From an uncultured bacterium (GTDB lineage Bacteria > Oederibacteriota > Oederibacteriia > Oederibacteriales > Oederibacteriaceae): a DNA stretch of 64,000 nt. Positions 21,660-63,891 of the stretch are shown here, piece by piece. The stretch is taken from assembly GCA_965112635.1 (NCBI GenBank), contig OZ218778.1, positions 1,792,001 through 1,856,000 of the forward strand. Direction: 5' to 3'. Numbering within the stretch: position 1 is the first letter of the stretch; every line of letters begins with the position of its first letter. The position numbers were made by a program, and so were the translations under genes. Under the pieces are notes generated by a model, which was not told the DNA's origin, did no database searches, and was given only the letters and a program-made list of their open reading frames with translations.

Positions 21660-22355
21660 ATGGCCATCAGAAAAAGACCTCCTGAAGATATCGAATCCCT
21701 TATGCATCGCGGGACGCAATGGATCATTGTTTATGGCGACCTGATGTCCTATTTGATGATATTTTTCCTTATCTTGTTCGCATTTGCCTCGGCCAAAAAA
21801 GGGAATTTCGTGGAATCCCTCAAGGGAATTGAAAAAACCTTCGGGCAAAAAGAGAAGAAGATGTCCCAGGAGGCGATGAAAGAGGTTCAGGTCCAATCCG
21901 AGATACAAAGTTTTCTGGTCGCGCAAAACCTGACCCAAGTTGCCCGCGTGGTCATGACCGAACAAGATCTAAAAGTTATATTGACCAGCCCAGTGCTTTT
22001 TCCGTCCGGCTCGGCAGAGTTGCATCGCAAATCTTACGGTATTTTGCATACTATAGCCCAATCTATGAAAGATATGCCGAACTATGTCACGGTTGAGGGC
22101 TTCACGGATAATGTCCCAATTCATTCAGCCAAATACAGTTCCAACTGGGAATTGTCCGCGGCGCGAGCCATGCAAGTTGTCAAATACTTTATTGAAGAGG
22201 AGAAAATCTCTCCCACTCAGATCTCCTTCACGGGGTATGGCGAGTACCAGCCGGAATATACCAATGACACCGAAGAACACCGGGGATTGAATAGAAGGAT
22301 CGAGATTATCATCCACCGCATTTTGGTCCCCGTCACGGCAACAAAAAAATCGTGA
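21660..22355 (+). CDS. motB: Flagellar-type stator protein MotB (OmpA-like peptidoglycan-binding domain)
   Basis: WIIVYGDLMSYLMIFF with the conserved Asp; LFPSGSA, VEGFTDNVPI, SNWELSAARA, GYGEYQP, NRRIEI. Confidence 0.92.
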   Translation: MAIRKRPPEDIESLMHRGTQWIIVYGDLMSYLMIFFLILFAFASAKKGNFVESLKGIEKTFGQKEKKMSQEAMKEVQVQSEIQSFLVAQNLTQVARVVMTEQDLKVILTSPVLFPSGSAELHRKSYGILHTIAQSMKDMPNYVTVEGFTDNVPIHSAKYSSNWELSAARAMQVVKYFIEEEKISPTQISFTGYGEYQPEYTNDTEEHRGLNRRIEIIIHRILVPVTATKKS

Positions 22356-24683: not shown

Positions 24684-24832
24684 CCAAAAAAGTGAAGAAA
24701 TCAAGGGAATTATCCTGGTTTATCCGCTAAAATTTCCTATAACAATTTATAAAAAATCGAAAAAGCCGGCCCAATGCGCGAGCTTGGGTGGGAAAACTAT
24801 CCTCCTATAATTTAGGAACAAGGGGTATACCG

Positions 24833-25768
24833 GTGGCTGATATACATAAAGAAAAAGATATTCTTCTTTTACCCCTTCTCATTACTTTTCTTGCCCTGAC
24901 TTGCCTCATCTTCATCCCTGTCCTCGTGTCCGCTGAAGGAAATACTGCCGCTCAATTTTTAAAGATCCCTATCTCAGCCCGTCCAGCCGCCATGACTGCT
25001 TTTGGAGCCGTCTCTGACGACGTGAACGCCTTGCTTTATAACCCGGCCGGCTTATCCCAATTGTCCCAAAACGAGTTCTCCCTCTCCTATGTTAAATATT
25101 TCACCGACACAAACATGGCATTTTTGGGACTGGCTGTCCCGCTCGCGCACATCGGCACTTTTGGTCTTGGCGTCACATACCTGAGCGTCCTGAATATTGA
25201 CGCCAGGGACGCGCAGGAGAACCAGGCCGGAAGTTTTGGGAGCACGGATTGGGCCGTCACTTTGTCCTACGCCAAGGAAAACCTATGGGGCAACCTGAAT
25301 GCAGGGGCAAGCCTTAAGGTGGTGGGGGAGACTATCGATGCCACAAGCGCAAACGGGCTGGCCGGCGATGTGGGGGTCCTTTGGATCGGTAAAGAGCCGA
25401 GGGCTTCGATAGGACTGGAAGTGGAAAATGTCGGGACCGGCCTGCAATTCATCAATGTCAGTGATCCCTTACCCTTGGGAGTTGTTCTATCAGGTGCTTA
25501 CTGGCCAGTGGAACAGATAGTCGTCGGTACGGATGTGGACATGTATGTGCTGGAGAACAAGACCTATGTGTCCCTGGGCGGGGAAGACTGGCTGACCAAA
25601 GAGTTCGCTCTCAGGCTTGGTTACAAGTTCGGGACCGATCTGGGCCCGCTTTCCGGTTTGACCGGTGGGATAGGGCTGGCCATGGCGGGTTACAGCGTGG
25701 ACTATGCCGCTGGAGATGCCGGAGACCTGGGCACACTGCACCGGGTTTCTTTGGGAATAAAATTTTGA
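24833..25768 (+). CDS. PorV/PorQ-family (FadL-like) outer-membrane beta-barrel
   Basis: AQFLKIPISARPAAM..AF.AVSDDVNALLYNPAGL signature, NVGT, DPLP, LRLGY, DYA, LGTLHRVSLGIKF with a C-terminal Phe; start at 24788 or 24833. Confidence 0.85.
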   Translation: MADIHKEKDILLLPLLITFLALTCLIFIPVLVSAEGNTAAQFLKIPISARPAAMTAFGAVSDDVNALLYNPAGLSQLSQNEFSLSYVKYFTDTNMAFLGLAVPLAHIGTFGLGVTYLSVLNIDARDAQENQAGSFGSTDWAVTLSYAKENLWGNLNAGASLKVVGETIDATSANGLAGDVGVLWIGKEPRASIGLEVENVGTGLQFINVSDPLPLGVVLSGAYWPVEQIVVGTDVDMYVLENKTYVSLGGEDWLTKEFALRLGYKFGTDLGPLSGLTGGIGLAMAGYSVDYAAGDAGDLGTLHRVSLGIKF

Positions 25769-46448: not shown

Positions 46449-46487
46449 TCTCTAAACAAAAGTTTGTGTATAGGAGAGGGTTTAAAG

Positions 46488-47951
46488 GTGAGAAAAACTC
46501 TTTTTGTTTTATTGTCCATTTTATTGTTTTATTCAAGTCCGATCAGAGCAGTAGATTTCCAGCCCTATCAGGTTCCTGGCCAGGACATCATTGTTAGGCC
46601 TGAATCCGAGAGACCTTTTAAAAGAGTGGTCATAGGGCTGGAACCCAATAAAACCAGCTATTTTATGCTTCCCAAGACAGACGAGTTTGATGTCAAGGCA
46701 ACCAATGAACAAATTGAATATTTAAGGCGGCAGGTCTACTGGCTGAACTATGAACTGACCCACGGACAAATATTCAGACACATGCCGGATTACACACATT
46801 TTTTTGTAGCTATCCCGGACCCCAAATATGTTCACGAATCCCCTGGGAATGAGCAAGAAGAATTCATTGATTACTTGAAAACCAGGGCTCGATGGAACGA
46901 TAAGAAGATAAAAGACAGGGTTAGTTTTTGTAAAATACCCATGACCCTAGTTTATCCCCAGGATATGGCTGAACCAGTTGGGACTGACAGCAAAGGCCGT
47001 TTGGTTCTTGGAATTGGAATGGATTATGACAGATGGTATTACGAACCTCTGAAAGTTCTTCTGAAATATTTTTCCGATGATTTCCAATTTGTAAAATTAA
47101 ACGGGAAAAATAATGAGGAGATCAATACCGAAGGCGGGGATATTAATTTAACCTGGCTTCCTGAGGGGAAAGTTGGTTTGTTGATCGGCTACCACCGAGT
47201 TCTTCGATATATTCAGCACAAGACCGGAATGGATATGAGGGGACAAAAAGTTGATGCTGCTTTGATCGAAGAGGCACGCAAAGCTTTTCAGGATGCTTTT
47301 TTTGGTGTCGAGGTAATTATCGTGGGGGAGGACCTCCTGCGTAAACCTTTAATTGTGAACGATGAGCTTTTTCATCTGGATATGATCGTTAACCTTGTCA
47401 AATCTGGGGATAAGACCCTGGCATTTATACCTACCTATCTCGTTTCTCCCGTGGATGCGATCACACATGTTCATCTCTCTGATGTGGTACGGGATAGGAT
47501 ACAAAAAGTTTACGACATTTGTGCAGCGCAACTAAAGAAAAGAGGTTTCAAGGTAATCAGACTGCCTTTTGCAGACCATCCGGTCCGCAATCCTGTCAAT
47601 GTAGGAAAGTTTATTAATCCCGAAGATGGCAAACCCTATGTCCTGCTCGGTAAATACCCATATCACTTTGCCCTTTCTGATGGATCCATTCCGCAGTTTG
47701 AACTTCAAGCAGGTTTTGATGCATTAACCTTGATCGTTGACAAGTGGAGACAGGACCCTTCAGGTTCAAATTGGCAGGAAGTACAGAAATATTTCGATGA
47801 AATTTGGAAAATGATGGATGATATTCCTCAAAAAAAGAACCCATTATTTGACAGGCAGGCTGAGATCTATAAGTTGCACGGTATTTCCGTGATAGGTGTC
47901 CCGATTTTCCCGACCGGGGATGGCGGTTTGCATTGTCTTTTATTGAAATAA
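46488..47951 (+). CDS. Secreted pentein-superfamily enzyme (agmatine/peptidyl-arginine deiminase-like)
   Basis: Signal peptide (GTG 46488 after AGGAGAGG); motifs YPQD, EGGDI, FHLD and GGLHC in the order typical of guanidino-modifying enzymes. Confidence 0.6.
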   Translation: MRKTLFVLLSILLFYSSPIRAVDFQPYQVPGQDIIVRPESERPFKRVVIGLEPNKTSYFMLPKTDEFDVKATNEQIEYLRRQVYWLNYELTHGQIFRHMPDYTHFFVAIPDPKYVHESPGNEQEEFIDYLKTRARWNDKKIKDRVSFCKIPMTLVYPQDMAEPVGTDSKGRLVLGIGMDYDRWYYEPLKVLLKYFSDDFQFVKLNGKNNEEINTEGGDINLTWLPEGKVGLLIGYHRVLRYIQHKTGMDMRGQKVDAALIEEARKAFQDAFFGVEVIIVGEDLLRKPLIVNDELFHLDMIVNLVKSGDKTLAFIPTYLVSPVDAITHVHLSDVVRDRIQKVYDICAAQLKKRGFKVIRLPFADHPVRNPVNVGKFINPEDGKPYVLLGKYPYHFALSDGSIPQFELQAGFDALTLIVDKWRQDPSGSNWQEVQKYFDEIWKMMDDIPQKKNPLFDRQAEIYKLHGISVIGVPIFPTGDGGLHCLLLK

Positions 47952-48235
47952 AAATATAACTTTGTTGCGCTAACGTAACTCTACAGATCCCAACAAACCT
48001 CAAAAATAGAACTATCCAAATATTAAACCTCGGTAATTTGTATAGTAACTCTTTATAAAACAACATAAAAGGTCGCAGCATGTATCCTGTAAACTATCCC
48101 TATAAATGTAATAAAATAGATAGCAAAGAAGGGGATAATGGATATAATAAATGCTAGTGCAATAAAATAATCTAAAAAAACCAACAAAAAAATTAATAAA
48201 TAATTGCGAAATAATTAATTTAAACCGGAGTCACC

Positions 48236-51200
48236 ATGAGTTTGTGGGGCAGAAGGTTTGACAAAGAAGACAAAATAATATTTTGGATTACATTTTCAAT
48301 ATTATTTTGTCTTTTCTTTTTTTGGCTTGTCTTTTTTATGCCTGGTCCAGAACATGAGATTCCCCAATATGTTTACGCGGCAGGTACAAACACCGCTACT
48401 GCGACCGCAACCAGGACAGCTACGAAAACTGCAACGCAGACAGCTACGAGTACTATAACCAAGACGGCTACGAGCACGGCTACTAATACCGTGACAAACA
48501 CAGCGACAAGTTCAGCGACGCGGACATCGACCCAGACTGCCACTGCAACCGCCACGCAGACCTATTCTCAAACTGCAACCGTTACCAGGACAGCTACGAA
48601 TACGGCAACTAACACTGCTACAAATACAGCTACCCAGACGTCGACTCAAACTGCCACTGCAACCGCCACGCAGACCTATTCTCAAACTGCAACCGTTACC
48701 AGGACAGCTACGAATACGGCAACTAACACTGCTACAAATACAGCTACCCAGACGTCGACTCAAACTGCCACTCCAACCGCCACTCAGACCTATTCTCAAA
48801 CTGCAACCATTACTAGGACGGCTACGAACACGTCTACTAACACCGCTACAAATACAGCCACTAATACTGCAACGAATACTTCCACAAGTTCAGCGACGCG
48901 GACATCGACTCAAACAGCGACAAGTACAGCTACTAATACGATGACAGGCACAGGGTCAGCGACCAATACGGCAACCAATACCGCAACCAACACCGCTACA
49001 AATACAGCGACCCGGACATCGACCCAGACTGCCACTGCAACCGCCACTCAGACCTATTCTCAAACTGCAACCATTACTAGGACGGCTACGAACACGTCTA
49101 CCAACACCGCTACGAATACGGCCACTAATACTGCAACGAATACTTCCACAAGTTCAGCGACGCGGACATCGACTCAAACGGCGACAAGTACAGCTACTAA
49201 TACAGTGACAGGCACAGGGTCAGCGACTAATACATCAACAAGTACCGCAACAAATACGGCGACAAGCACAACAACCAATACGGTGACGAATACTGCAACT
49301 AACACAACCACAAACACTACCACCCAAACAGCTACGCAAACTGCTACGAACACGGTAACTAATTCAGCTACCAACACTGCCACCCAGACAGCGACCAATA
49401 CAGCTTCCCAGACGGCAACGCAAACAGCCACAAACACGGAAACGCAAACGGCTACTCAGACAGCTACTCAGACCGCGACAGCGACAGCAACGGTAACAGG
49501 ATCAGTGACGAATACATCAACGCAAACAACCACAAATACAGCCACGAATACCGCGACCAATACGGAAACCCAGACATTAACCTCGACTATTACTGCCACT
49601 GTTACTTCAACGGTAACGGCAACAAACACGGCCAGTCAAACAGCAACAAACACATCCACAAATACCATGACGAATACGGAGACCCAGACAATAACCTCGA
49701 CTATTACTGCCACTGCTACTTCAACGTTGACTGCAACAAACACAGCCACTCAAACAACAACAAATACAGCCACGAATACTGCATCGAATACGGCGACCAA
49801 TACGGTTACGAATACAACCACAAACACGGCGACCAGCACGGCGACGTATACGGCTACTAGTACGATTACCCTGACCATTACGGCAACAGCAACATCTACG
49901 GCTACAGCAACAAATACCCCCACCAACACCGCGACTAATACTGCAACTAGGACAGCTACGAGTACAATAACCCGGACGGCTACGAGCACGGCTACCGCAA
50001 CAAGTACATCTACTCGGACAGCAACAAATACAGCCACGAATACTGCGACGAATACAGCGACAAGTACGGCGACCAGAACGATTACTTTGACCGCTACGGC
50101 CACAGCTACAAATACTGCAACACGGACAGCTACGAGCACGGCTACCGCAACAAGTACATCTACTCGGACAGCAACACAGACAGCCACCAATACGGTTACG
50201 AATACAGCGACAAATACTGCAACAAGGACTGCTACGAGCACGGCTACCGCAACAAGCACATCTACTCGGACGGCAACCCAGACAGCTACCAATACGGCAA
50301 CCCAGACAGCTACCAATACGGCTACCCAGACAGCAACTCAAACTGCCACTGCAACTGCCACGCAGACCTATTCTCAGACTGCAACCGTTACCAGGACGGC
50401 CTCTAATACGGCTACTAACACTGCGACAAATACAGCTACCCAGACAGCAACTCAAACTGCCACTGCAACTGCCACGCAGACCTATTCTCAAACTGCAACC
50501 GTTACCAGGACGGCCACGAATACGGCTACGAACACTGCTACCAACACAGCCACTAACACGGCCAGCAACACAACTACTCTGACAGCGACTTCAACTGCTA
50601 CTACTACAGCTACAACTACGGTTACGGCCACCAATACGGCCTCTAATACTGCAACTAACACAGCTACAAACACAGCTACAAACACAGCCACCAATACAGC
50701 TACGAACACAGCAACTCAAACTGCCACTGCAACTGCCACGCAGACCTATTCTCAAACTGCAACCGTTACCAGGACGGCCACGAATACGGCTACGAACACT
50801 GCTACCAATACAGTTACTCAGACGGCGACAATTACAGCTACCCAGACAGCAACTCAAACTGCCACTGCAACTGCCACGCAGACCTATTCTCAAACTGCAA
50901 CCGTTACCAGGACGGCCACGAATACGGCTACTAACACTGCTACCAATACAGCTACTCGGACAGCGACCTCAACGGCTACCGTTACAGCCACATCTACGGT
51001 TACAGCCACAAATACCGCCACGAACACAGCCACGGCTACAGCTACGCAGACCTATACTTTGACCAACACCGCTACAGCTACATCCACGAACACAAACACG
51101 CAGACGGCTACCAGCACGGCCACTTACACGCTAACCAGCACCGCTACCGCCACGGCCACGCAGACCTACACGTTGACTAATACAGCTACCGTTACATCCA

Positions 51201-54200
51201 CGAATACGAACACGCAGACGGCTACGAGCACGCAGACCTATACTTTAACTAACACAGCCACCGCCACGGCCACGAACACGAACACGCGGACAGCTACCAG
51301 CACGGCCACTTACACACTAACCAGCACAGCCACGGCTTCGGCTACACAGACCTACACGTTGTCCAACACCGCTACCGCTACAGCCACGAATACGAACACG
51401 CGGACAGCCACGAGCACAGCGACCTGTACGTTGACCAGCACAGCCACCGCCACGGCTACGCAGACCTATACTTTAACTAACACCGCTACCGCCACGGCCA
51501 CGAATACGAATACGCGGACGACTACCAGCACGGGGACCTATACGCTAACCTTCACGGCAACCGCCACGGCTACGCAGACCTATTCTTTGACCAACACAGC
51601 TACCGCTACGGCCACGAATACGAATACACAGACGGCCACGAGCACGGCTACCTATACTTTGACCAGCACCGCCACGGCTACGCAGACTTATTCTTTGACC
51701 AACACAGCTACCGCTACGGCCACGAATACGAATACGCGGACGGCTACCAGCACAGCTACCTATACTTTGACCAGCACAGCTACGGCCACCGCAACGCAGA
51801 CCTATACTTTAACTAACACCGCTACCGCCACGGCCACACAGACCTATTCTTTGACCAACACAGCCACCGCCACGGCCACGAACACGAACACGCGGACAGC
51901 TACCAGCACGGCCACTTACACACTAACCAGCACAGCCACGGCTTCGGCTACACAGACCTACACGTTGTCCAACACCGCTACCGCTACAGCCACGAATACG
52001 AACACGCGGACAGCCACGAGCACAGCGACCTGTACGTTGACCAGCACAGCCACCGCCACGGCTACGCAGACCTATACTTTAACTAACACCGCTACCGCCA
52101 CGGCCACACAGACCTATTCTTTGACCAACACGGCTACCGCTACATTCACGAATACGAACACACAGACCGCTACGAGCACGGCGACCTATACGCTAACCAG
52201 CACAGCCACGGCTACAGCTACGCAGACCTATACTTTGACCAACACCGCTACAGCTACAGCCACGAACACAAACACGCAGACGGCTACCAGCACGGCCACT
52301 TACACGCTAACCAGCACCGCTACCGCCACGGCTACGCAGACCTATACTTTAACTAACACCGCTACCGCCACGGCCACGCAGACCTATACTTTAACTAACA
52401 CCGCTACCGCCACGGCCACGCAGACCTATACTTTAACTAACACCGCTACCGCCACGGCCACACAGACCTATTCTTTGACCAACACGGCTACCGCTACATT
52501 CACGAATACGAATACACAGACCGCTACGAGCACGGCCACTTATACGCTAACCAGCACTGCTACCGCCACGGCTACGCAGACCTATTCTTTGACCAATACA
52601 GCTACTGTCACGAATACAAATACGCGAACGGCTACGAGCACAGCTACCTATACTTTGACCAGCACAGCTACGGCCACCGCAACGCAGACCTATACCTTGA
52701 CCAACACCGCTACAGCTACGACTACGAACACGAACACGCAGACGGCTACGAGTACGGCCACTTATACGCTAACCAGCACAGCCACGACCACCGCTACGCA
52801 GACCTATTCTTTGTCCAACACCGCTACCGCTACAGCCACGAATACGAACACGCGGACAGCCACAAGCACAGCGACCTGTACGTTGACCAGCACAGCCACC
52901 GCCACGGCCACGCAGACCTATACTTTAACTAACACCGCTACCGCCACGGCCACACAGACCTATTCTTTGACCAATACAGCTACTGTCACGAATACAAATA
53001 CGCGAACGGCTACGAGCACAGCTACCTATACTTTGACCAGCACAGCTACGGCCACCGCAACGCAGACCTATACCTTGACCAACACCGCTACAGCTACGAC
53101 TACGAACACGAACACGCAGACGGCTACGAGTACGGCCACTTATACGCTAACCTCCACGGCCACAGCTACGCAGACCTACACCTTGACCAGTACCGTTACT
53201 GCCACGGCCACGAATACGAATACGCAGACAGCTACGAGCACGGCCACCTATACGCTAACCAGTACAGCAACCGCTACGATCACGAATACGAACACGCGGA
53301 CGGCTACCAGCACGGCGACCTATACGCTAACCAGCACTGCTACCGCCACGGCTACGCAGACCTATTCTTTGACCAATACAGCTACTGTCACGAATACAAA
53401 TACGCGAACGGCTACCAGCACAGCTACCTATACTTTGACCAGCACAGCTACCGCCACGGCCACACAGACCTATTCTTTGACCAACACGGCTACCGCTACA
53501 TTCACGAATACGAATACACAGACCGCTACGAGCACGGCGACCTATACGCTAACCAGCACAGCCACGGCTACAGCTACGCAGACCTATACTTTGACCAACA
53601 CCGCTACAGCTACGGCCACGAACACAAACACGCAGACGGCTACGAGCACGCAGACCTATACGCTAACCAGCACAGCCACGGCTACAGCTACGCAGACCTA
53701 TACTTTGACCAACACCGCTACAGCTACATCCACGAACACAAACACGCAGACGGCTACCAGCACGGCCACTTACACGCTAACCAGCACCGCTACCGCCACG
53801 GCCACGCAGACCTACACGTTGACTAATACAGCTACCGTTACATCCACGAATACGAACACCCAGACCGCTACCGCCACGGCCACACAGACCTATTCTTTGA
53901 CCAACACAGCTACAGCTACGGCCACGAACACAAACACGCGGACAGCTACCAGCACGGCCACTTACACGCTAACCAGCACCGCTACCGCCACGGCCACGCA
54001 GACCTATACTTTAACTAACACCGCTACAGCTACGGTTACGAATACAAACACGCGGACGGCCACAAGCACGGCTACCTATACTTTGACCAGCACCGCTACA
54101 GCTACGAATACGGCCACGAACACGGCTACCAATACGGCTACTAGCACAGCTACAAATACGGCCACCCAGACGGCGACCTCAACCGCTACCGCCACAGCTA

Positions 54201-57200
54201 CATCTACGGTTACCGCCACCAATACGGCCACCAGCACTACTACCAGCACAGCAACTAATACGACTACCAACACAGCTACTAATACAGCCACCCAGACCGC
54301 TACCGCCACGGCCACACGGACCTATTCTTTGACCAACACAGCTACGAACACAGCTACACCAACGCTGACCTCAACTACTACCGCAACAGCTACATCTACG
54401 GTTACAGCGACCAATACGACAACGAATACTGCAACAAATACGGCTACGAACACAACTACTCAGACAGCGACCTCAACTACTACTGCCACAGCTACATCCA
54501 CGATTACAGCGACCAGCACGGCTACTAATACGGCCACTAACACAGCAACCAATACTGGGACAAATACTGCCACGAATACTGTTACCCAGACGATGACCGC
54601 AACTATTACTGTCACAGCTACATCTACAGCTTCAGCCACCAATTCGGCTACGAACACAGCTACTAACACGGCGACTAATACGGCCACGAACACGGCTACA
54701 AATACTGCCACGAATACAGCCACCCAGACGGCGACCTCAACTGCTACCGCCACAGCTACATCTACGGTTACCGCCACCAATACGGCCACCAGCACTACTA
54801 CCAGCACAGCAACTAATACGACTACCAACACAGCTACTAATACAGCCACCCAGACCGCTACCGCCACGGCCACACAGACCTATTCTTTGACTAACACAGC
54901 TACCGCTACATCCACGAACACAAACACGCAGACGGCCACAAGCACGGCCACTTACACGCTAACCAGCACAGCTACGGCCACCGCTACGCAGACCTATACT
55001 TTGACCAGCACCGCTACAGCTACGGTTACGAATACAAACACGCGGACGGCCACAAGCACGGCTACCAATACGGCTACTAGCACAGCTACAAATACGGCCA
55101 CCAACACAGCTACGAACACAGCTACACCAACGCTGACCTCAACTACTACCGCAACAGCTACATCTACGGTTACAGCGACCAATACGACAACGAATACTGC
55201 AACAAATACGGCTACGAACACAACTACTCAGACAGCGACCTCAACTACTACTGCCACAGCTACATCCACGATTACAGCGACCAGCACGGCTACTAATACG
55301 GCCACTAACACAGCAACCAATACTGGGACAAATACTGCCACGAATACTGTTACCCAGACGATGACCGCAACTATTACTGTCACAGCTACATCTACAGCTT
55401 CAGCCACCAATTCGGCTACGAACACAGCTACTAACACGGCGACTAATACGGCCACGAACACGGCTACAAATACTGCCACGAATACAGCCACCCAGACGGC
55501 GACCTCAACTGCTACCGCCACAGCTACATCTACGGTTACCGCCACCAATACGGCCACCAGCACTACTACCAGCACAGCAACTAATACGACTACCAACACA
55601 GCTACTAATACAGCCACCCAGACCGCTACCGCCACGGCCACACAGACCTATTCTTTGACCAACACAGCTACAGCTACGGTTACGAATACAAACACGCGGA
55701 CGGCCACAAGCACGGCTACCAATACGGCTACTAGCACAGCTACAAATACGGCCACCAACACAGCTACGAACACAGCTACACCAACGCTGACCTCAACTAC
55801 TACCGCCACAGCTACATCTACGGTTACAGCGACCAATACTTCTACGAATACAGCTACTAATACGCCCACCAATACAGCTACTTGGACTGCGACCCCAACC
55901 GCCACTGCCACATCAACATCTACAGTTACAGACACCAGTACAGCTACTTATACTGGGACAAATACGGCTACGAACACCACTACCAATACGGCCACTAACA
56001 CGGCAACCAACACAGCGACGAATACAGCTACAAGTACGGCAACCAGCACGAGTACCACGACAAATACGGTAACGAATACAGTTACTAACACAGCCACAAA
56101 TACGGTTACTTGGACAATGACTAATACGGCTACCAACACAGCTACAAATACAGCCACCCAGACGGCGACCTCAACTGCTACCGCCACAGCTACATCTACG
56201 GTTACAGCGACCAATACGACAACGAATACTGCAACAAATACCGCAACGAACACAACTACTCAGACAGCGACCTCAACTACTACTGCCACAGCTACATCCA
56301 CGATTACAGCGACCAGCACGGCTACTAATACGGCCACTAAAACAGCAACCAATACTGGGACAAATACTGCCACGAATACTGTTACCCAGACGATGACCGC
56401 AACTATTACTGTCACAGCTACATCTACGGTTACCGCAACCAATACGGCCACAAACACAGCTACGAATACGGCTTCTCAGACAACAACAGCAACAACTACT
56501 ACTACAGCTACCAATACAGCTACTAATACGTCCACCAATACTGCTACTTGGACTGCGACCCTAACTGCCACTGCCACGTTAACATCTACAGTTACGGCCA
56601 CCAGTACAGCTACTTATACTGGGACAAATACGGCTACGAACACCGCTACCAATACAGCTACTTGGACAGCAACTAATACGGCCACCAACACAGCTACGAA
56701 CACAAATACTCAGACAGCGACCTCAACTGCTACTGCCACGGCTACGTCTACTAATACAGTAACCAATACGACAACCAATACGGCCACAAATACTGCAACA
56801 AATACATCCACGATTACAGCTACCCAGACGGCAACAACAACTGCTACTGCCACTGCTACATCTACGGTTACAGCTACCAATACAGCTACTGATACGACAA
56901 CGAATACGGCCACAAATACGACTACGAACACCACTACCAATACGGTTACTAACACGGCAACAAATACAGCGACGAATACGGCTACCAGTACGGCAACCAG
57001 TACGAGTACCACTACGAACACAGCCACGAACACAGCCACTAATACTGCGACAAATACAGGCACAAATACTGCTACCCAGACGATGACATCAACTGTTACT
57101 GCCACAGCTACATCTACTGCTACAACTACCAATACGGCGACCAGCACGGCAACTAATACAGCTACGAATACAGCTTCTCAGACAGCAACCGCAACCCCTA

Positions 57201-60200
57201 CCGCCACAGCTACGGCTTCTAATACAACAACCAATACTGCAACAAATACTGTCACTACCACGACTACCAACACGGCCACTACTACAGTTACCAATACGGC
57301 TACAAATACCACTACAGATACGGCAACTAATACGACTACCAGCACAGCTACAAACACAGCAACTCAGACTTCTACGAACACCACTACCAGCACAGCTACA
57401 AATACGGTTACAAATACGGCTACTTCTACAATAACCAACACAGCTTCGAGTACCGCTACAAACACAACAACTAATACGATTACCAATACTGCTACAAACA
57501 CAGCGACTCAGACTGTGACGAACACGGCTACCATTACAGCTACAAGCACGACTACAAACACAGCTACGAACACGGCAACTAGCACTGCGACAAATACAGC
57601 GACGAATACAGCTACAAGTACTGCAACAAGTACGAGTTCCGCTACCAATACAGCTACCAACACTGCTACAAATACCGTCACTAATACTGCTACGAACACG
57701 GCAACCAATACTGCGACAAATACAACGACGATTACAGCTACCCAGACGGCGACCTTAACTACTACTACCACAGCTACATCTACGGTTACGGCAACCAACA
57801 CGGCTTCTAATACAACAACAAATACTGCTACCAGCACGGCCACTAATACGGCAACAAATACTGCTACAAATACTGCCACGAATACTGCTACACAGACGGC
57901 GAGCTCAACTGTTACTGCCACAGCGACAGCTACATTGACAGCGACCAACACAACCACAAACACGACTTCCAATACAACTACGAACTCAGACACTCCAACA
58001 GCTACGAACACCGCTACCATTACAGTTACCAGTACGGCCACTAATACTATGACTAATACATCAACTAGTACTGGCACGAATACCAATACAACAACCCAAA
58101 CAACCACGAACACAACAACAAATACGGCTACTTGGACGGCGACTATTACTCCTACTAATACCACCACGAACACAGCTACAAACACGACTACAAACACAAC
58201 CACGAACACAGCAACTAACACTGCGACAATTACTTCAACTACTACCACTACCAATACTGCCACCAATACGGTTACTAACACTGCAAGCAATACTGCTACA
58301 AATACAGCGACGATTACTGCTACCCAGACGGCGACCTCAACTGCTACCGCCACAGCTACATCTACGGTTACAGCGACCATCACAACTACTAACACGACTA
58401 CGAATACCGCTACGAACACGACCACTAATACAGCTACCAATACAGCGACCAATACGGCTACGAATACCGCCACGAATACAACAACTAATACGACTACCAA
58501 TACAGCTTCAAACACGGCAACCCAGACGGCTACGAACACCGCTACTATTACCTCTACAAACACGACTACAAACACAGCCACCAACACGGAAACTAACACT
58601 GTGACTATTACTTCAACTACTACCGCTACCAATACTGCCACCAACACCGCGACGAGTACTGCAACTAATACAGCTACAAACACGACCACGGGAACCGTAA
58701 CAAATACTGCAACCAACACAGCGACTCAGACGGCTACGAGCACCACTACAAATACAGCTACCAATACGGCCACCAATACTGTGACCAATACATCAACTAG
58801 TACAGGTACGAATACCGATACGGCAACCCAAACAACTACGAATACAACAACAAATACGGCGACTTGGACGGCGACTAATACTCCTACTAATACCATCACG
58901 AACACTTCCACTAACACGACTACAAATACCACAACAAATACTGCAACTAATACGGTAACGAACACAAATACGATCACGAATACAGCGACCCAGACGATTA
59001 CCAATACTGTGACCAGTACAACAACAAGCACCACGACTTATACAACAACGAACACGAGCACCAGCACTAACACGGCGACTCAAACCGCAACGAATACAAC
59101 TACAAGCACTGTTACAAATACAAGCACCCAAACAGCGACAAATACGACTACTCAGACCGCCACTCAAACAGCAACTCAGACAGAGACAGTTACTGCAACC
59201 GACACGGCAACTCAAACTGCCACCCAGACAATCACTCAGACAGCGTCAAGTACGGAGACCGTCACGAATACCACCACAGCAACCAGCACGACTACGACAA
59301 CCAATACAACTACTGCAACTTGTTCGTCTACCTTGACCGCAACTCCTACAGTGACCAGCACGTTGACAACGACCTTTACGGGGACAAGTTCAGCAACTCA
59401 AACGGCGACTGCAACTAGTACAAATACGAATACGAATACTGCAACAGGCACTACGACCAATACGGAAACTAATACAGCTACTCAGACTGCTTCGAGTACC
59501 GTGACAACAACTGGCACGCCGACGAATACGGTTACCTCGACAGCCACTATTTCCCTTACATTCACAAATACAGTGACTCAAACCACAACAGCTACGGCTA
59601 CTTTGACGGTTACGACTACTACTACAAGTACAATTACAAATACTGCCACCACCACCAATACGGAGACATCGACATCTACCAGCACGACCACTGGTTCGGA
59701 GACTGCTACAAGTTCCGCGACAACGACGCCCACTAATACTGGTACCTCAACCACTACCGCAACGGAAACGATTACCGCTACTATAACTTGTACATTTACC
59801 GAAACTTACACGGAAACTAGCACATCAACTAATACAGCTACTCCTACAAATACCTGCACTGTAACTGTGACTACAACTTCAACTGAAACTATGACTTCCA
59901 CCTGTTCTTACACTGCCACTTTGACAGATACAGTGACTTTAACTTGGACTGAAACAGCAACTTGTACTGAGACGGCAACCTGGACTGAAACAAGTTCACC
60001 AACAGCAACTGCCACGATCACGCTGACCCCAACCTCGACTCAGACAGGGACCCAAACGGCGACTCAGACTGATACGCAATCTGCAACCTCTACGGGCACC
60101 CCAACAAGCACTAACACAGTTTCGAATACAGTGACCCAGACAAGTACCAGCACTTTAACTTCAACGTTGTCATCTACCGGAACGACCACATCAACTGGGA

Positions 60201-61780
60201 CAATAACGAGCACGGGAACAATGACTATGACAGCGACTAATACAGGTACAGTGACGTTGAGTTCTACCTCAACCAATACCCCCACTCCAACTCCAACAAG
60301 TAGTGCCACCAATACGATTACGCTGACTTATACTCAAACTAAGACTGGCACCGTCACCACTACAGCAACACAAACAGCAACGGTGACCACGACAGGCACC
60401 ATCACCCTTACCTTTACACAAACGGCTACATCTACGATGACCGCCACGACGACCATGACAGCAACGATCACCCTGACCAGTACTATTACTTTGACTTTTA
60501 CGCAGACGGCAACAGCTACTAACACGGCAACGATCACTCTGACTTTCACGAGCACCAATTCTGCTACAAACACTGATACAGCATCTAGGACGAGCACCGC
60601 CACCATGACAGCGACTATTACTCTGACCCCAACTATCACCCAGACACCTACAACAACTACTACATATTCTTTGACCCTAACTCCGAGTTTAACCTTTACT
60701 TATTTGCCTTCTTCTACCCAAACCATGACAAGCACCATTAGCCCAACTTCATCCAAAACACCAACAATCACTTTGACATTTACCCAATCCTTAACAACGA
60801 CTAATACCGGTACCGTGACGGTTACCATGACCATCACTACTACCGGGACCATAACGGCTACCTCCACTTCAACACAAACTTATTCGAGGACGGCGACTAT
60901 CACCCTCACTGCCACAATTTCCAATACGCCCTCTCAAACCCTAACGCTTACAATTACAACCACCTCGTCCCTCACGCCTACTTCGACTAACACCAGTACA
61001 GCAACAAGGACTGCGACAGTTACCGCGACGAGCATTGGAACCTCTACCCAAACATGGACCTTAACCACCACTCTGACCCTAACCTATACTCCCACTACCA
61101 CTATGACCATTACGCTCACCACGACCCCTACGACGACTCCAACGCCCTCACTTACCCTAACCAGCACCTATTCAGTCACGTCTTCCCAAACCTTCACTGC
61201 TAGCACGACCTTCACGATCACTCCCACCCCTGGACCTTCTACTCTAACGGTCCAGGTTTTGGATGCGTTTGATGAACTGAGGTTGTCTGGGGCCACGGTT
61301 TCTATCACAGGGCCTTCAGGAACGCTAACTGGCAGTACGGATGGACGGGGGAATGTTACCTTTAACGGACTAGTCTTTGGGTCATATACCGTAAGTGCTT
61401 CAATGACCGGCTATAATGGATCTTCAGGGAATGCTGTGCTAGCTCAACTAAATAATAGTTTGTTGATACGGCTCTACACGCAGTACAAGTCCAGTGTCCC
61501 TTATCTGACCAAGAACATAATCAACCCACTGAAAAATGAGAGCCTTGAGATCGGATGTCTGCTTACTCAGAAAGAGCACGTTTTGATCAAGATATTTACC
61601 CTTTCTGGCGGGGCAGAGATCATCACTCTTGTTGATCAGGACATTAGTCAGGGTCGCTATGCTGTAGAATGGTTCGGCAAAACCATTAATGGTGACACTG
61701 TGGGCAATGGGATTTATATAGTCTTTATTCAACTCGGGACTGACAGGTTCATCAAGAAAGTCGCTGTAGTTAAGCAATAA
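48236..61780 (+). CDS. 4514-aa (Thr-X)n giant surface protein with carboxypeptidase-regulatory-like and FlgD-Ig/T9SS-like C-terminal domains
   Basis: Uninterrupted ORF, GGAG RBS, hydrophobic N-terminus ending VYA-AG, about 4280 aa of Thr-X, then GATVSI..TDGRG..F.GL..GSYTVSAS..GY and the CTD NIINP...IKIFTLSG...W.GK...GD.VGNGIY...KKVAVVK. Confidence 0.88.
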   Translation: MSLWGRRFDKEDKIIFWITFSILFCLFFFWLVFFMPGPEHEIPQYVYAAGTNTATATATRTATKTATQTATSTITKTATSTATNTVTNTATSSATRTSTQTATATATQTYSQTATVTRTATNTATNTATNTATQTSTQTATATATQTYSQTATVTRTATNTATNTATNTATQTSTQTATPTATQTYSQTATITRTATNTSTNTATNTATNTATNTSTSSATRTSTQTATSTATNTMTGTGSATNTATNTATNTATNTATRTSTQTATATATQTYSQTATITRTATNTSTNTATNTATNTATNTSTSSATRTSTQTATSTATNTVTGTGSATNTSTSTATNTATSTTTNTVTNTATNTTTNTTTQTATQTATNTVTNSATNTATQTATNTASQTATQTATNTETQTATQTATQTATATATVTGSVTNTSTQTTTNTATNTATNTETQTLTSTITATVTSTVTATNTASQTATNTSTNTMTNTETQTITSTITATATSTLTATNTATQTTTNTATNTASNTATNTVTNTTTNTATSTATYTATSTITLTITATATSTATATNTPTNTATNTATRTATSTITRTATSTATATSTSTRTATNTATNTATNTATSTATRTITLTATATATNTATRTATSTATATSTSTRTATQTATNTVTNTATNTATRTATSTATATSTSTRTATQTATNTATQTATNTATQTATQTATATATQTYSQTATVTRTASNTATNTATNTATQTATQTATATATQTYSQTATVTRTATNTATNTATNTATNTASNTTTLTATSTATTTATTTVTATNTASNTATNTATNTATNTATNTATNTATQTATATATQTYSQTATVTRTATNTATNTATNTVTQTATITATQTATQTATATATQTYSQTATVTRTATNTATNTATNTATRTATSTATVTATSTVTATNTATNTATATATQTYTLTNTATATSTNTNTQTATSTATYTLTSTATATATQTYTLTNTATVTSTNTNTQTATSTQTYTLTNTATATATNTNTRTATSTATYTLTSTATASATQTYTLSNTATATATNTNTRTATSTATCTLTSTATATATQTYTLTNTATATATNTNTRTTTSTGTYTLTFTATATATQTYSLTNTATATATNTNTQTATSTATYTLTSTATATQTYSLTNTATATATNTNTRTATSTATYTLTSTATATATQTYTLTNTATATATQTYSLTNTATATATNTNTRTATSTATYTLTSTATASATQTYTLSNTATATATNTNTRTATSTATCTLTSTATATATQTYTLTNTATATATQTYSLTNTATATFTNTNTQTATSTATYTLTSTATATATQTYTLTNTATATATNTNTQTATSTATYTLTSTATATATQTYTLTNTATATATQTYTLTNTATATATQTYTLTNTATATATQTYSLTNTATATFTNTNTQTATSTATYTLTSTATATATQTYSLTNTATVTNTNTRTATSTATYTLTSTATATATQTYTLTNTATATTTNTNTQTATSTATYTLTSTATTTATQTYSLSNTATATATNTNTRTATSTATCTLTSTATATATQTYTLTNTATATATQTYSLTNTATVTNTNTRTATSTATYTLTSTATATATQTYTLTNTATATTTNTNTQTATSTATYTLTSTATATQTYTLTSTVTATATNTNTQTATSTATYTLTSTATATITNTNTRTATSTATYTLTSTATATATQTYSLTNTATVTNTNTRTATSTATYTLTSTATATATQTYSLTNTATATFTNTNTQTATSTATYTLTSTATATATQTYTLTNTATATATNTNTQTATSTQTYTLTSTATATATQTYTLTNTATATSTNTNTQTATSTATYTLTSTATATATQTYTLTNTATVTSTNTNTQTATATATQTYSLTNTATATATNTNTRTATSTATYTLTSTATATATQTYTLTNTATATVTNTNTRTATSTATYTLTSTATATNTATNTATNTATSTATNTATQTATSTATATATSTVTATNTATSTTTSTATNTTTNTATNTATQTATATATRTYSLTNTATNTATPTLTSTTTATATSTVTATNTTTNTATNTATNTTTQTATSTTTATATSTITATSTATNTATNTATNTGTNTATNTVTQTMTATITVTATSTASATNSATNTATNTATNTATNTATNTATNTATQTATSTATATATSTVTATNTATSTTTSTATNTTTNTATNTATQTATATATQTYSLTNTATATSTNTNTQTATSTATYTLTSTATATATQTYTLTSTATATVTNTNTRTATSTATNTATSTATNTATNTATNTATPTLTSTTTATATSTVTATNTTTNTATNTATNTTTQTATSTTTATATSTITATSTATNTATNTATNTGTNTATNTVTQTMTATITVTATSTASATNSATNTATNTATNTATNTATNTATNTATQTATSTATATATSTVTATNTATSTTTSTATNTTTNTATNTATQTATATATQTYSLTNTATATVTNTNTRTATSTATNTATSTATNTATNTATNTATPTLTSTTTATATSTVTATNTSTNTATNTPTNTATWTATPTATATSTSTVTDTSTATYTGTNTATNTTTNTATNTATNTATNTATSTATSTSTTTNTVTNTVTNTATNTVTWTMTNTATNTATNTATQTATSTATATATSTVTATNTTTNTATNTATNTTTQTATSTTTATATSTITATSTATNTATKTATNTGTNTATNTVTQTMTATITVTATSTVTATNTATNTATNTASQTTTATTTTTATNTATNTSTNTATWTATLTATATLTSTVTATSTATYTGTNTATNTATNTATWTATNTATNTATNTNTQTATSTATATATSTNTVTNTTTNTATNTATNTSTITATQTATTTATATATSTVTATNTATDTTTNTATNTTTNTTTNTVTNTATNTATNTATSTATSTSTTTNTATNTATNTATNTGTNTATQTMTSTVTATATSTATTTNTATSTATNTATNTASQTATATPTATATASNTTTNTATNTVTTTTTNTATTTVTNTATNTTTDTATNTTTSTATNTATQTSTNTTTSTATNTVTNTATSTITNTASSTATNTTTNTITNTATNTATQTVTNTATITATSTTTNTATNTATSTATNTATNTATSTATSTSSATNTATNTATNTVTNTATNTATNTATNTTTITATQTATLTTTTTATSTVTATNTASNTTTNTATSTATNTATNTATNTATNTATQTASSTVTATATATLTATNTTTNTTSNTTTNSDTPTATNTATITVTSTATNTMTNTSTSTGTNTNTTTQTTTNTTTNTATWTATITPTNTTTNTATNTTTNTTTNTATNTATITSTTTTTNTATNTVTNTASNTATNTATITATQTATSTATATATSTVTATITTTNTTTNTATNTTTNTATNTATNTATNTATNTTTNTTTNTASNTATQTATNTATITSTNTTTNTATNTETNTVTITSTTTATNTATNTATSTATNTATNTTTGTVTNTATNTATQTATSTTTNTATNTATNTVTNTSTSTGTNTDTATQTTTNTTTNTATWTATNTPTNTITNTSTNTTTNTTTNTATNTVTNTNTITNTATQTITNTVTSTTTSTTTYTTTNTSTSTNTATQTATNTTTSTVTNTSTQTATNTTTQTATQTATQTETVTATDTATQTATQTITQTASSTETVTNTTTATSTTTTTNTTTATCSSTLTATPTVTSTLTTTFTGTSSATQTATATSTNTNTNTATGTTTNTETNTATQTASSTVTTTGTPTNTVTSTATISLTFTNTVTQTTTATATLTVTTTTTSTITNTATTTNTETSTSTSTTTGSETATSSATTTPTNTGTSTTTATETITATITCTFTETYTETSTSTNTATPTNTCTVTVTTTSTETMTSTCSYTATLTDTVTLTWTETATCTETATWTETSSPTATATITLTPTSTQTGTQTATQTDTQSATSTGTPTSTNTVSNTVTQTSTSTLTSTLSSTGTTTSTGTITSTGTMTMTATNTGTVTLSSTSTNTPTPTPTSSATNTITLTYTQTKTGTVTTTATQTATVTTTGTITLTFTQTATSTMTATTTMTATITLTSTITLTFTQTATATNTATITLTFTSTNSATNTDTASRTSTATMTATITLTPTITQTPTTTTTYSLTLTPSLTFTYLPSSTQTMTSTISPTSSKTPTITLTFTQSLTTTNTGTVTVTMTITTTGTITATSTSTQTYSRTATITLTATISNTPSQTLTLTITTTSSLTPTSTNTSTATRTATVTATSIGTSTQTWTLTTTLTLTYTPTTTMTITLTTTPTTTPTPSLTLTSTYSVTSSQTFTASTTFTITPTPGPSTLTVQVLDAFDELRLSGATVSITGPSGTLTGSTDGRGNVTFNGLVFGSYTVSASMTGYNGSSGNAVLAQLNNSLLIRLYTQYKSSVPYLTKNIINPLKNESLEIGCLLTQKEHVLIKIFTLSGGAEIITLVDQDISQGRYAVEWFGKTINGDTVGNGIYIVFIQLGTDRFIKKVAVVKQ
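48384..61230 (+). repeat. About 12.8 kb ACN-NNN coding repeat array with nested tandem and block duplications
   Basis: 114-bp units near 48530-48870; three 42-bp units at 52334-52459; a block of about 560 bp at 54332-54891 repeated at 55100-55659. Confidence 0.92.
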
Positions 61781-61836: not shown

Positions 61837-62232
61837 ATGAACTGGAAAAAGGTTGTTCTTTGTATTTTTATTACCCTTTTCTCCTTATGGGGCAATCTTG
61901 CATTCAGCCAAGGCATTCCATGGCTGGACCAAGATGGGTTGTTTCTGGGCCATAACAAGATCAATCCGCTGAATCATGAGTCTGTATCTGTTGTCTATCA
62001 TTTGGCGCAGGACACCCATGTGGTCATAAAAATTTATGATCTTTCCGGCCAGAAACTTATCAGGACATTAGTGGACGGGAATTTTGGAGGGAGTTGGTCA
62101 TACCAAGTTTTTTGGGATGGCACCAGTAGAAGTGGAGATGTTGTTGGAAATGGTATTTACGTCATTCAGTTAGTAACCAAAAGTGTAAATATACTCAAAT
62201 TCATTGCCGTGGTTAAAACCACAGGCAGTTAA
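61837..62232 (+). CDS. Small secreted stand-alone FlgD-Ig/T9SS-CTD-like protein
   Basis: Signal peptide (AFS-Q) followed only by NKINPL...IKIYDLSG..IRTLVDG...WDG....GDVVGNGIY...IAVVK. Confidence 0.78.
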   Translation: MNWKKVVLCIFITLFSLWGNLAFSQGIPWLDQDGLFLGHNKINPLNHESVSVVYHLAQDTHVVIKIYDLSGQKLIRTLVDGNFGGSWSYQVFWDGTSRSGDVVGNGIYVIQLVTKSVNILKFIAVVKTTGS

Positions 62233-62238
62233 AGGGGG

Positions 62239-63891
62239 GTGGGTAGGGTGCAAATCTTTATGGTTGGTTTGGTCATTCTGTTGATGTGGGCGCCCAATGT
62301 TTTTGGCACGGCTTTTGGAACCACGGGCCAAAATTTTCTAACCATTGGCGTTGGTGCAAGGCCGACGGCGATGGGAGGGGCTTTCGTCGGTCTAGCTGAC
62401 GACCCTGATGCGATCCACTGGAACCCAGCTGGTTTGATTAATCTTGAAGACTATGAAATTTCCCTGATGCATAGCGCTCTCATCGGAGACGTCAGCTATG
62501 ATACCGTTTCCTACGCCCAGCCCATAGCTGTTGATTATGGTTATATTGGAGCCGGCATTGCCTATTTAGGTGTCCCCCCGTTTGATAATACCGTTGGTCG
62601 CGAAAACTCGATCTCTGCCCATAATTTCCTGTTAGACATTGCCTATGCGAATCGATTGAGCGATATGTTTGATATAGGCAATCCAATCGGCCGGCGTTTA
62701 AGTTTGGGACTAGGTATAAAATGGATCAATTTTTCGATCGATAACTTGGTGAGTTATAATGACGTGGCCTTCGATGTTGGCACCTATTTCATCACTCCCT
62801 GGGAACCGTTAACTCTGGGCGCGAGTTTGCAAAATTTAGGTATTTCTCTGGACCCTGCCGCTGTTTCAGACCCACTGCCTTTGACCTTTAGATGCGGAGC
62901 GTGTGTCCACATTGCAGACCTATCTATGCAGCTTGACCTGATCCAGCAAGTGGATAATGACGCCGTGATAGGATGGGGAACAGAATATAATTTCCAGGAT
63001 TTATTGTTCCTAAGGGGTGGTTATGCGATTGGCGGGCCTTCTCTAAACGGGTTGTCCGGGATAACATGCGGTGCCGGATGGAGGATGAGGTCCTTTGAGT
63101 TTGATTATACCTTTGTACCTATGGGGGAGTTGGGCGCCACCCACCGTTTTTCTCTTAACGTTTCCTTTGAACAGGAGCTCAAAGAATTACGTAAGAATCT
63201 GGCCGTGGAATCCAAAGACAAGGTCCAAAAAGATGAAATCATTGCTTTATATAAGAAGGGCAATGAATTCTATTATCAGGGGAACTACACTCAAGCTTTG
63301 GATGCCTGGCAGCAGATCCTGATCGTGGACCCGAAAAATCAAAAAGCGCAGGAAAGAATCACTTTTACCACGAACCTTTTGAACAAGAAGTTCACGGAAA
63401 ACGAAGCAACGCAGTATTATGAACAGGGAATGAGTGATTATTCGGCTGGTGACTACGAAAAGGCTTTGGAACAATGGGCTAGTGTCCAAAAGATAGTTCC
63501 CGATTACTTGAATATAAAGGAGATGATAAGTAAGGCAGAGGCGAAGTTGGCTGAAAAGAGAGTCGACAGGGCTGGAGTGGGTCCTTTGCTTGAAGCTGCT
63601 CGTACTTCCTATAAACAAGGGCAACTGCTGGATGCCGTCAAAGATTGGAGAAAAGTTTTAGAAGCAAATCCTCAAAATCAGGAAGCCCTGAAGTCGTTAA
63701 AGGATGCTAATGCGGAGATTTTAAACTTGGCAAAGAAAACCTATGATAAGGGGTTAGAATTTTACACCAATGGGGATTACGATAATGCCATTGCCACCTG
63801 GAAAAATGTGGTAATACTTCAGCCTGATCACCCAACCGTATTGGGTGATATTGAGAGAGCCCAGAAAGAGGTAAATTCGTTGAAAAAATAA
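62239..63891 (+). CDS. PorV/PorQ-family barrel fused to C-terminal TPR repeats
   Basis: FLTIGVGARPTAMGGAFVGLADDPDAIHWNPAGL, DPLP, LRGGY, DYTFVPMGELGATHRFSL, then about four TPR-like units (Y.KG..FY..G.Y..A...W). Confidence 0.85.
   Translation: MGRVQIFMVGLVILLMWAPNVFGTAFGTTGQNFLTIGVGARPTAMGGAFVGLADDPDAIHWNPAGLINLEDYEISLMHSALIGDVSYDTVSYAQPIAVDYGYIGAGIAYLGVPPFDNTVGRENSISAHNFLLDIAYANRLSDMFDIGNPIGRRLSLGLGIKWINFSIDNLVSYNDVAFDVGTYFITPWEPLTLGASLQNLGISLDPAAVSDPLPLTFRCGACVHIADLSMQLDLIQQVDNDAVIGWGTEYNFQDLLFLRGGYAIGGPSLNGLSGITCGAGWRMRSFEFDYTFVPMGELGATHRFSLNVSFEQELKELRKNLAVESKDKVQKDEIIALYKKGNEFYYQGNYTQALDAWQQILIVDPKNQKAQERITFTTNLLNKKFTENEATQYYEQGMSDYSAGDYEKALEQWASVQKIVPDYLNIKEMISKAEAKLAEKRVDRAGVGPLLEAARTSYKQGQLLDAVKDWRKVLEANPQNQEALKSLKDANAEILNLAKKTYDKGLEFYTNGDYDNAIATWKNVVILQPDHPTVLGDIERAQKEVNSLKK

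Follow-up and report, generated by a model that had tools for sequence, protein, structure and literature searches.

A 64,000-nucleotide (nt) stretch of contig OZ218778.1 from an uncultured bacterium was analyzed over its full length (the window). Positions 48236..61780 on its forward strand are occupied by an uninterrupted open reading frame (ORF) of 4,514 codons, whose predicted product consists almost entirely of dyads that start with threonine. Residues 49-4335 of this giant protein, 4,287 amino acids (aa) or 95.0% of its length, form a Thr-X array, in which X denotes the second residue of each dyad. The gene and its upstream region comprise the following features:

47952..48235, forward strand: upstream region of 284 nt, AT-rich, with a GGAG ribosome-binding site at approximately 48227-48230
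48236..48379, forward strand: residues 1-48, a basic N-terminus and a 22-residue hydrophobic segment, then PGPEHEIPQYVYA followed by AG
48380..54382, forward strand: part 1 of the Thr-X array, residues 49-2049, built of 38-aa units and inserts of 14 aa, for example QTYTLTNTATATATNTNTRTATSTATYTLTSTATATAT
54383..57382, forward strand: part 2 of the Thr-X array, residues ~2050-3049, a 256-aa superrepeat rich in (TNTA)n
57383..61240, forward strand: part 3 of the Thr-X array, residues ~3050-4335, without detectable repeat and with a strict dyad
61241..61438, forward strand: CarboxypepD_reg domain (prealbumin/immunoglobulin (Ig)-like), residues ~4336-4401 (PF13620, E 6.9e-9, 36.4 bits, cut-off 32.3)
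61478..61780, forward strand: sorting domain of ~100 residues that resembles type A domains of type IX secretion (T9SS) and FlgD_ig, ending in KKVAVVKQ and the stop codon

The positional parity of Thr was computed along the array. Hydroxy amino acids were found at 2,140 of the 2,144 odd positions (2,054 Thr and 86 Ser, a ratio of 24:1), the other four being A49, L4157, I4267, and G4333. Between residues 51 and 4155, odd positions were exclusively Thr or Ser, and the phase of the dyad did not slip once across residues 49-4335. At the DNA level, a pattern of 25 dyads (ACNNNN x24 + AC) gave 820 matches in the window and none in 100 shuffles. The even (X) positions were mainly occupied by A (710), N (420), S (236), Q (153), T (114), L (103), V (87), Y (77), and I (56), with Pro at 36 (1.7%), Gly at 32 (1.5%), and charged residues at 71 of them. 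Counts for the entire protein were similarly low for Gly (55, 1.2%), Pro (42, 0.9%), and D+E+K+R (107, 2.4%). The resulting Thr-X polymer of ~4,290 residues has a mass of ~446 kDa.

Repetition within the array respected the dyad. The main period was 38 aa (19 dyads) in residues 49-2049, together with 14-aa insert units, and 256 aa in residues 2049-3049. Spacings between copies of the motif QTY[TS]L[TS]NTAT (38, 36, 26, 24, 14, 98, 292, and 256 aa) were even in 31 of 31 cases. All 42 rows reported by Tandem Repeats Finder had a period that was a multiple of 6 nt, as was the offset in 159 of 170 self-BLAST matches. No repeat period was detected in residues 3049-4335 (~1,290 aa), where identity at X positions stayed near the background of 0.175 and the dyad was equally strict. 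The X positions of this part gain hydrophobicity toward its end, and a Fourier test of its hydrophobic and turn-prone X residues yielded only a 4-residue (TNTA) signal above shuffles, with nothing near 19 or 38 aa. The initial annotation of this stretch had described ~95% strict (Thr-X)n over 4,514 aa, scarcity of Gly, Pro, and charge, even periods of 14, 38, and 256 aa, and two small C-terminal domains. Each of these claims was borne out, the two domains being CarboxypepD_reg and, after it, a FlgD_ig/Por_Secre_tail-like domain, and the frequent parity breaks that would have cast doubt on the array were looked for and not found.

Misassembly is common in repeat-rich genes, and the length of the array or its reading frame might be artefactual, either by expansion during assembly or as a noncoding repeat that is open by chance. 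Self-comparison of the array revealed a best match of 84% DNA identity over 1.2 kb (768-nt offset) and no pair of repeat copies at ≥97% identity, so that sequencing reads can distinguish the copies. The repeat copies are old. Copies offset by 38 aa showed synonymous differences at 156 of 330 Thr codons and a residue change at 22 of 330, and for copies offset by 256 aa these numbers were 22 and 1 of 140, respectively. Since Thr codons thus differed mostly synonymously between copies, with few residue changes, the codon comparison indicated that purifying selection acts on Thr at the protein level, which argues against a noncoding repeat. Further evidence against an artefact came from the final ~1,290 aa of the array, which are without repetition, and from the signal sequence, ribosome-binding site, and two Pfam-recognisable C-terminal domains, all of which are in frame. 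In addition, the contig on which the PheT of the window is recorded measures 2,876,006 bp, which suggested a contiguous assembly. These results indicated that the ORF is a genuine gene and that its array is no assembly expansion; an artefactual origin was considered extremely unlikely.

Codon usage of the giant gene was almost even for Thr (ACA 26%, ACC 25%, ACG 27%, and ACT 22%), while ACC accounted for 48% of Thr codons in 26 other genes of the window. Because each copy of the protein contains 2,187 Thr (48% of its residues), as compared to a Thr share of 4.3% in those 26 genes, its expression must weigh on Thr supply, and the even use of Thr codons may reflect that load. No transfer RNA genes were found within the window. 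In the region upstream of the giant gene, one weak sigma-70-like site (48139-48168) was detected, which did not exceed the level found in shuffles.

Residues 1-48 constitute a putative Sec signal peptide or signal anchor, with a cleavage site between VYA and AG predicted by the -3/-1 rule alone. No non-repeat region separates this signal from the Thr-X array. At the other end of the protein, the sorting domain matched PF13860 (E 2.9e-4) and PF18962 (E 0.015), both under their cut-offs, as well as the C-terminus of PorZ (E 4.7e-4), and it could be aligned with the tails of two other tail-bearing proteins encoded in the window. A profile derived from an alignment of 16 sorting-domain tails, including that of the giant, retrieved from the PDB the C-terminal domains of PorU (6za2, E 5.1e-9) and PorZ (5m11, E 5.3e-6), a Por sorting domain (8glj_D, E 1.2e-4), and also FlgD Ig-like domains. 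TIGR04183 was matched by 14 of these 16 tails at E ≤ 0.01, and the sorting-domain family comprised 290,631 representatives at E ≤ 0.001. A phmmer search of the PDB with the C-terminal 193 aa of the giant gave nothing useful, and a homologue search with the same segment among longer proteins returned only CarboxypepD_reg-repeat proteins. An AlphaFold2 model of residues 4040-4514 had a predicted local distance difference test (pLDDT) score of 38 overall and was uninformative for both C-terminal domains.

Genes for candidate sorting functions were found next to the giant gene and elsewhere in the window, which also encodes a second giant protein and components of a motor:

61837..62232, forward strand: 131-aa protein that consists of a signal peptide and a sorting domain only (TIGR04183, 25.7 bits, cut-off 23)
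62239..63891, forward strand: PorV/PorQ-family outer-membrane barrel fused to C-terminal tetratricopeptide (TPR) repeats (NF033709, 161.5 bits, cut-off 90)
24788..25768, forward strand: PorV/PorQ-family gene (NF033709, 157.1 bits), directly 5' of the second giant
25782..37004, forward strand: second giant, 3,740 aa, with a large head, a 560-aa Thr-X run, and the same sorting domain
19106..22355: FliF_C-FliG fusion, MotA, and MotB

The giant gene, the gene for the 131-aa protein, and the downstream PorV/PorQ-family gene share the same orientation and lie 56 and 6 nt apart; no terminator was found between the giant gene and the two genes that follow it. The sorting domain of the 131-aa protein is 43% identical to that of the giant. 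The 131-aa protein recalls the small cargo protein PorA from Porphyromonas, in which the sorting domain has a signalling role and binds PorV (PMC12152298), although PorA additionally has a body domain. In Bacteroidota, PorV has been described as a shuttle for type A sorting domains (PMC5562754), and T9SS shuttle proteins are genetically linked to their cargo, with cargo-specific shuttles often encoded beside it (PMC12618676, PMC9143113). In the 3,740-aa protein, non-repeat regions joined by short Thr-X and Pro-Thr linkers precede the 560-aa Thr-X run, which is followed by Fn3-like domains, CarboxypepD_reg, and the sorting domain. Over 160 aa, the C-terminal module of this protein can be aligned with that of the Thr-X giant at 27% identity. 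This second protein showed that a 'headed' form of the architecture of the giant occurs in the same genome.

Relatives of the array were sought, as suggested in the initial annotation, by applying the 25-dyad pattern to 185,579 species genomes. The at least 128 loci listed, which represent a sample, mostly carried Pro-Thr runs of 50-100 aa and came from many phyla; six had Thr-X runs of ≥640 aa. An outlier among the loci listed was L047 (CAWIXE010000003.1, 414005-425968) in a genome of candidate division FCPU426, where a reading frame of ≥3,987 aa that is open toward either end of the locus contains a strict Thr-X run of 3,702 aa. Of its 1,851 fixed positions, 1,828 are Thr, 22 Ser, and one another residue. 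Its X positions alternate between V/A/I and Q/E, as (TVTQ)n and (TETA)n, with Pro at 13 and Glu at 465 of the 1,851. The L047 repeats have also diverged, with none at ≥97% identity, and the N-terminus of the protein falls outside the locus. A Thr-X array followed by FlgD_ig/Por_Secre_tail domains was observed in the FCPU426 loci L013, L047, and L061, and in locus L045. The same scan yielded long (Thr-His)n, (Thr-Arg)n, and (Ser-Ser/Ala)n readings at loci L008, L016-L018, L026, L072, L103, and L122, the first six of which (L008, L016-L018, L026, and L072) belong to one Metamycoplasmataceae genome. They probably reflect simple hexanucleotide repeats in the DNA rather than proteins like the giant.

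A whole-length search among proteins of 2,482-7,900 aa, in which 1,360 candidates were scored and 60 retrieved, identified Thr-X runs of ≥200 aa in 36 of these 60, the longest being 916 aa. In all 36, the run is preceded by ≥153 non-repeat residues, in most cases by thousands; no more than 200 aa separate its end from the C-terminus in 15, and it abuts a ~90-aa tail accepted by the end-motif pattern in 8. One of the 60 is a protein of Candidatus Goldbacteria that NCBI names T9SS type A sorting domain-containing protein. When full-length sequences were scanned, TIGR04183 was matched at E ≤ 0.001 in one of 13 such Thr-X proteins. Conversely, a Thr-X run of ≥50 aa was present in one of the best 150 of the 290,631 tail-family representatives. 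Because so few proteins in either set combine both elements, the Thr-X array with a sorting tail is, on these sequence comparisons, a lineage-restricted architecture and no property of the domain. The giant of the window is the only verified headless case. The initial annotation called it a stalk with no head, and this description has good support, as the signal or anchor runs straight into the array, which is followed by the Ig-like and sorting domains. A search of the ESM Atlas with a 500-aa array segment gave a best score of 0.84, under the level that would count as more than a lead. In the literature on alternating-Thr or Thr-X repeats, giant dipeptide-repeat proteins, and T9SS in combination with threonine-rich proteins, no such protein was found described, and the accessible part of a preprint on giant genes (10.1101/2023.11.21.568195) mentions no strict Thr-X giant.

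In related proteins, the Thr-X module is a spacer of 200-900 residues (up to 916 aa) between the anchor or tail and a large head. The giant is apparently this spacer module of surface adhesins, grown huge without the usual working head; as the head is absent, the polymer itself would therefore be the product. We tentatively favour the interpretation that it is a headless stalk or brush, exported by a T9SS-like system and anchored by its C-terminus, with Thr probably O-glycosylated. Export would proceed via Sec, followed by handling in a T9SS-like sorting pathway, in which a PorV/PorQ-family outer-membrane protein, most likely the product of the second gene downstream, would recognise the sorting domain. 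The C-terminal end would then stay at the cell surface, with the remainder pointing outward as a long, uncharged, hydroxyl-rich surface fibril. Such fibrils could form a brush or coat that hydrates, spaces, or shields the cell or mediates weak multivalent adhesion. A modification, most likely O-glycosylation, would be placed on the invariant Thr. Since Thr is fixed across lineages while X ranges from A/N/S/Q in the giant, via V/Q/E/A in L047, to mostly P in shorter arrays, the comparison points to Thr as a functional or modified residue and disfavours a conserved packed core. The length of 1.4 micrometres proposed in the initial annotation holds for a fully extended chain only (1.4-1.5 micrometres), while a solenoid with 38 aa per coil would measure ~54 nm.

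Several observations weigh against an exported, glycosylated stalk. Cleavage of the signal is uncertain, given the length of the hydrophobic segment (22 residues) and the distance of 13 residues from it to the putative VYA-AG site. The sorting domain of the giant scored 16 bits against PF18962, for which the cut-off is 27, and its tail did not match TIGR04183 at E ≤ 0.01. Genes for SprA/Sov, PorK/L/M/N, and PorU were absent from the 64-kb window, to which the examination was confined, and the best 150 tail-family representatives, a list of mostly multi-domain proteins, showed that the array is not general to the sorting-domain family. With respect to glycosylation, none of the 39 window ORFs scanned against Pfam encoded a glycosyltransferase or oligosaccharyltransferase. 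The O-glycosylation motif described for Bacteroidota, D(S/T)(A/I/L/V/M/T) (PMC11611037), occurs 7 times in the 4,514 aa of the giant; with so few instances, the Thr array cannot be explained by the general O-glycosylation system of Bacteroidota, should the organism have it. The mucin-like, O-glycosylated filament envisaged in the initial annotation is a plausible hypothesis, with the glycosyltransferase survey and the motif count speaking against it. Finally, the composition of the array is unlike that of known disordered stalks, as Pro, Gly, and charge are rare and beta-formers common, and AlphaFold2 predicted ordered strands for one array block.

These last two points are accommodated by an alternative in which the array adopts a regular beta structure of long strands and short turns, a solenoid or ribbon with an all-Thr strand face. 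The product would then be a rigid rod of ~50 nm with flat Thr surfaces, which could bind an ordered surface (ice, mineral, or crystalline polysaccharide) or self-stack into a matrix. Two-faced strands are marked by strict alternation, and the 24:1 preference for Thr over Ser at the fixed position is consistent with such a face. An AlphaFold2 run on residues 1000-1303 alone, without alignment, gave a mean pLDDT of 77.8 and a predicted template modelling (pTM) score of 0.81, with a mean pLDDT of ≥66 in 4 of 5 models. The model has 16 strands of ~15 residues separated by turns of 3-4 residues, and its 19-residue period is half of the 38-aa repeat. Low contents of Pro and Gly at X (1.7 and 1.5%) contrast with the Pro-rich shorter arrays; both giant arrays, that of the window and that of L047, are Pro-poor and rich in beta-formers, unlike short linkers, and share a T-polar-T-apolar pattern of four residues, seen as (TNTA)n in the former and as (TVTQ)n and (TETA)n in the latter. 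However, Foldseek found no match of the model in the PDB (best E 1.2, template modelling (TM) score ≤0.16), and ice-binding and curli chains appeared only at E > 1 and TM ≤ 0.1. The non-repetitive ~300 aa of the array included in a second model had a pLDDT of ~45, in a model that scored 38 as a whole. Since non-repetitive array thus folds poorly, the confidence for the block may stem from its internal repetition. Residues 3049-4335 also lack a 19- or 38-aa property period, and X is unconserved between lineages, with a quarter of it Glu in L047, which would be hard to bury in a core. The beta-rich Thr fibre suggested in the initial annotation thus finds limited support, in the modelled block and not in the PDB search or the non-repetitive tail, and we consider an ordered beta structure, the chief alternative to a stalk or brush, unlikely, albeit clearly less so than an artefact. 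Still less probable is the specific case of a novel protein material, an unsolved fold with ~15-residue strands, a 19-residue period, and an unbroken all-Thr face, displayed in a T9SS-like manner by a deep-branching lineage. If true, the protein would act through the all-Thr face, which might order water or ice or bind to a crystalline surface, and a class of headless 'threonine ribbon' proteins would have the giant and the FCPU426 (TVTQ/TETA)n protein as its first members.

The initial annotation had also proposed a tether moved by a motor encoded upstream, and gliding adhesins of Flavobacterium are indeed moved by the T9SS motor. Motor genes do exist in the window. The 554-aa FliF_C-FliG fusion has two membrane segments that flank the FliF C-terminal ring domain, followed by the FliG middle and C-terminal domains, and the genes for MotA and MotB/OmpA come next. 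With gaps of 16-207 nt, the cluster (19106-25768) continues with an Ig-repeat secreted protein, a TPR protein, and the PorV-like gene and leads into the gene for the 3,740-aa protein. Its gene content looks like a compact rotor-stator set; FliF_C-FliG, MotA, and MotB were the only flagellar genes found in the window. The proximity of motor genes, a PorV-like gene, and a giant with a sorting domain could favour a tether or track element driven by the FliF/FliG-MotA-MotB motor. The cluster is, however, contiguous with the second giant (25782..37004) and not with the Thr-X giant, from which it is separated by genes for 2-oxoacid:ferredoxin oxidoreductase, ThiG, and ThiE and by the 284-nt promoter-like gap, and the sequence of the Thr-X protein has no feature that suggests motor contact. 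A tether role for the Thr-X giant is therefore unsupported and was regarded as very improbable.

As a headless stalk, the giant would represent an extreme natural test of the purpose of low-complexity stalks, with a lone spacer of 4,290 residues in which selection keeps a single residue type at 2,144 positions. An answer to the question of glycosylated brush or ordered Thr-faced ribbon would clarify the role of the shorter Thr-X arrays, of which hundreds occur among Chloroflexota, Binatia, FCPU426, Goldbacteria-like bacteria, and other uncultured lineages. It would also reveal how T9SS-like sorting tails work outside Bacteroidota, and might provide a very simple repetitive biomaterial or surface-binding protein.

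Other genes and features of the window were recorded alongside. PheT (8275..10650) shared at most 46% identity with any of 5.8 billion proteins, and the few named near hits belonged to Candidatus Poribacteria (44-45%); the source lineage appears deep-branching and poorly sampled. A 6S RNA (RF00013, 92.7 bits) is located at 11573-11758, between zapA and an MgsA-type AAA+ gene that is followed by a gene for 5-formyltetrahydrofolate cyclo-ligase. Two forward-strand ORFs at 39997-41947 (406 and 255 aa, 38-nt overlap) had no family match. A signal peptide is present in the first, the C-terminus of the second (...NMGF) is like that of an outer-membrane barrel, and they may represent one frameshifted gene or two genes. 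Immediately upstream of the giant gene, positions 46464..47951 encode a 495-aa protein with a signal peptide, for which no match was found in Pfam, NCBIfam, or the PDB. Its C-terminus (...GDGGLHCLLLK) presumably resembles the C-terminal catalytic-Cys motif of guanidino-group-modifying enzymes (agmatine and peptidyl-arginine deiminases), an unconfirmed lead.

Compared with known low-complexity and surface proteins, the giant combines familiar elements in a different arrangement. Mucin-like (PTS) domains are extended, densely O-glycosylated, and rich in Ser, Thr, and Pro; the giant contains 48% Thr but only 0.9% Pro. The widespread Pro-Thr linkers of secreted glycoside hydrolases and multidomain proteins are likewise (T-X)n sequences with fixed Thr, but they are short, Pro-rich, and domain-joining, whereas the array of the giant is Pro-poor, 40-80 times longer, and joins nothing. 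TxT beta-solenoids of ice-binding and ice-nucleation proteins have a fixed coil of 12-16 aa with Gly- or Cys-containing turns. The giant resembles them in the alternate-position Thr on (predicted) beta strands, in its even periods, and in its presumed display on a bacterial surface, and differs from them in lacking a constant coil length, as the 38-aa period is confined to residues 49-2049, and a structural match.

PsrP, one of the serine-rich repeat proteins (SRRPs), has a length of ~4,800 aa. The giant is comparable in length and similarly has thousands of residues of strict dipeptides of a hydroxy amino acid and X, arranged as an anchor-side stalk. In SRRPs of Gram-positive bacteria, Ser-rich SX repeats flank a binding region and an LPXTG anchor is present (PMC6973325), whereas the giant uses Thr, has neither binding region nor LPXTG motif, and ends in a diderm-type sorting tail. 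Accessory SecA2/Y2 and Gtf genes lie near SRRP genes, and the 39 window ORFs included no SecA/SecY and no Gtf/glycosyltransferase families. The Ser-Asp repeats of staphylococcal Sdr/Clf proteins are anchor-side, extended, compaction-resistant spacers (PMC10367597), and the dipeptide repeat of the giant also adjoins its anchor. Unlike these highly charged stalks of a few hundred residues at most, its array is nearly uncharged and more than 10 times longer.

With T9SS type A cargo and giant adhesins, the giant shares a putative Sec-type signal, a probable C-terminal beta-sandwich sorting domain, very large size, and the expected form of a surface filament, and a PorV/PorQ/PorP-type outer-membrane shuttle or anchor is encoded next to it. 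SprB of Flavobacterium johnsoniae is a giant T9SS surface adhesin. Unlike such adhesins, the giant has no functional head or Ig-repeat body, and its sorting domain is divergent and sub-cut-off; its source organism is no recognisable Bacteroidota, and no core T9SS machinery was seen among the genes of the 64-kb window. The giant thus lacks the defining features of SRRPs and of Ser-Asp stalks and shares those of T9SS cargo in part.

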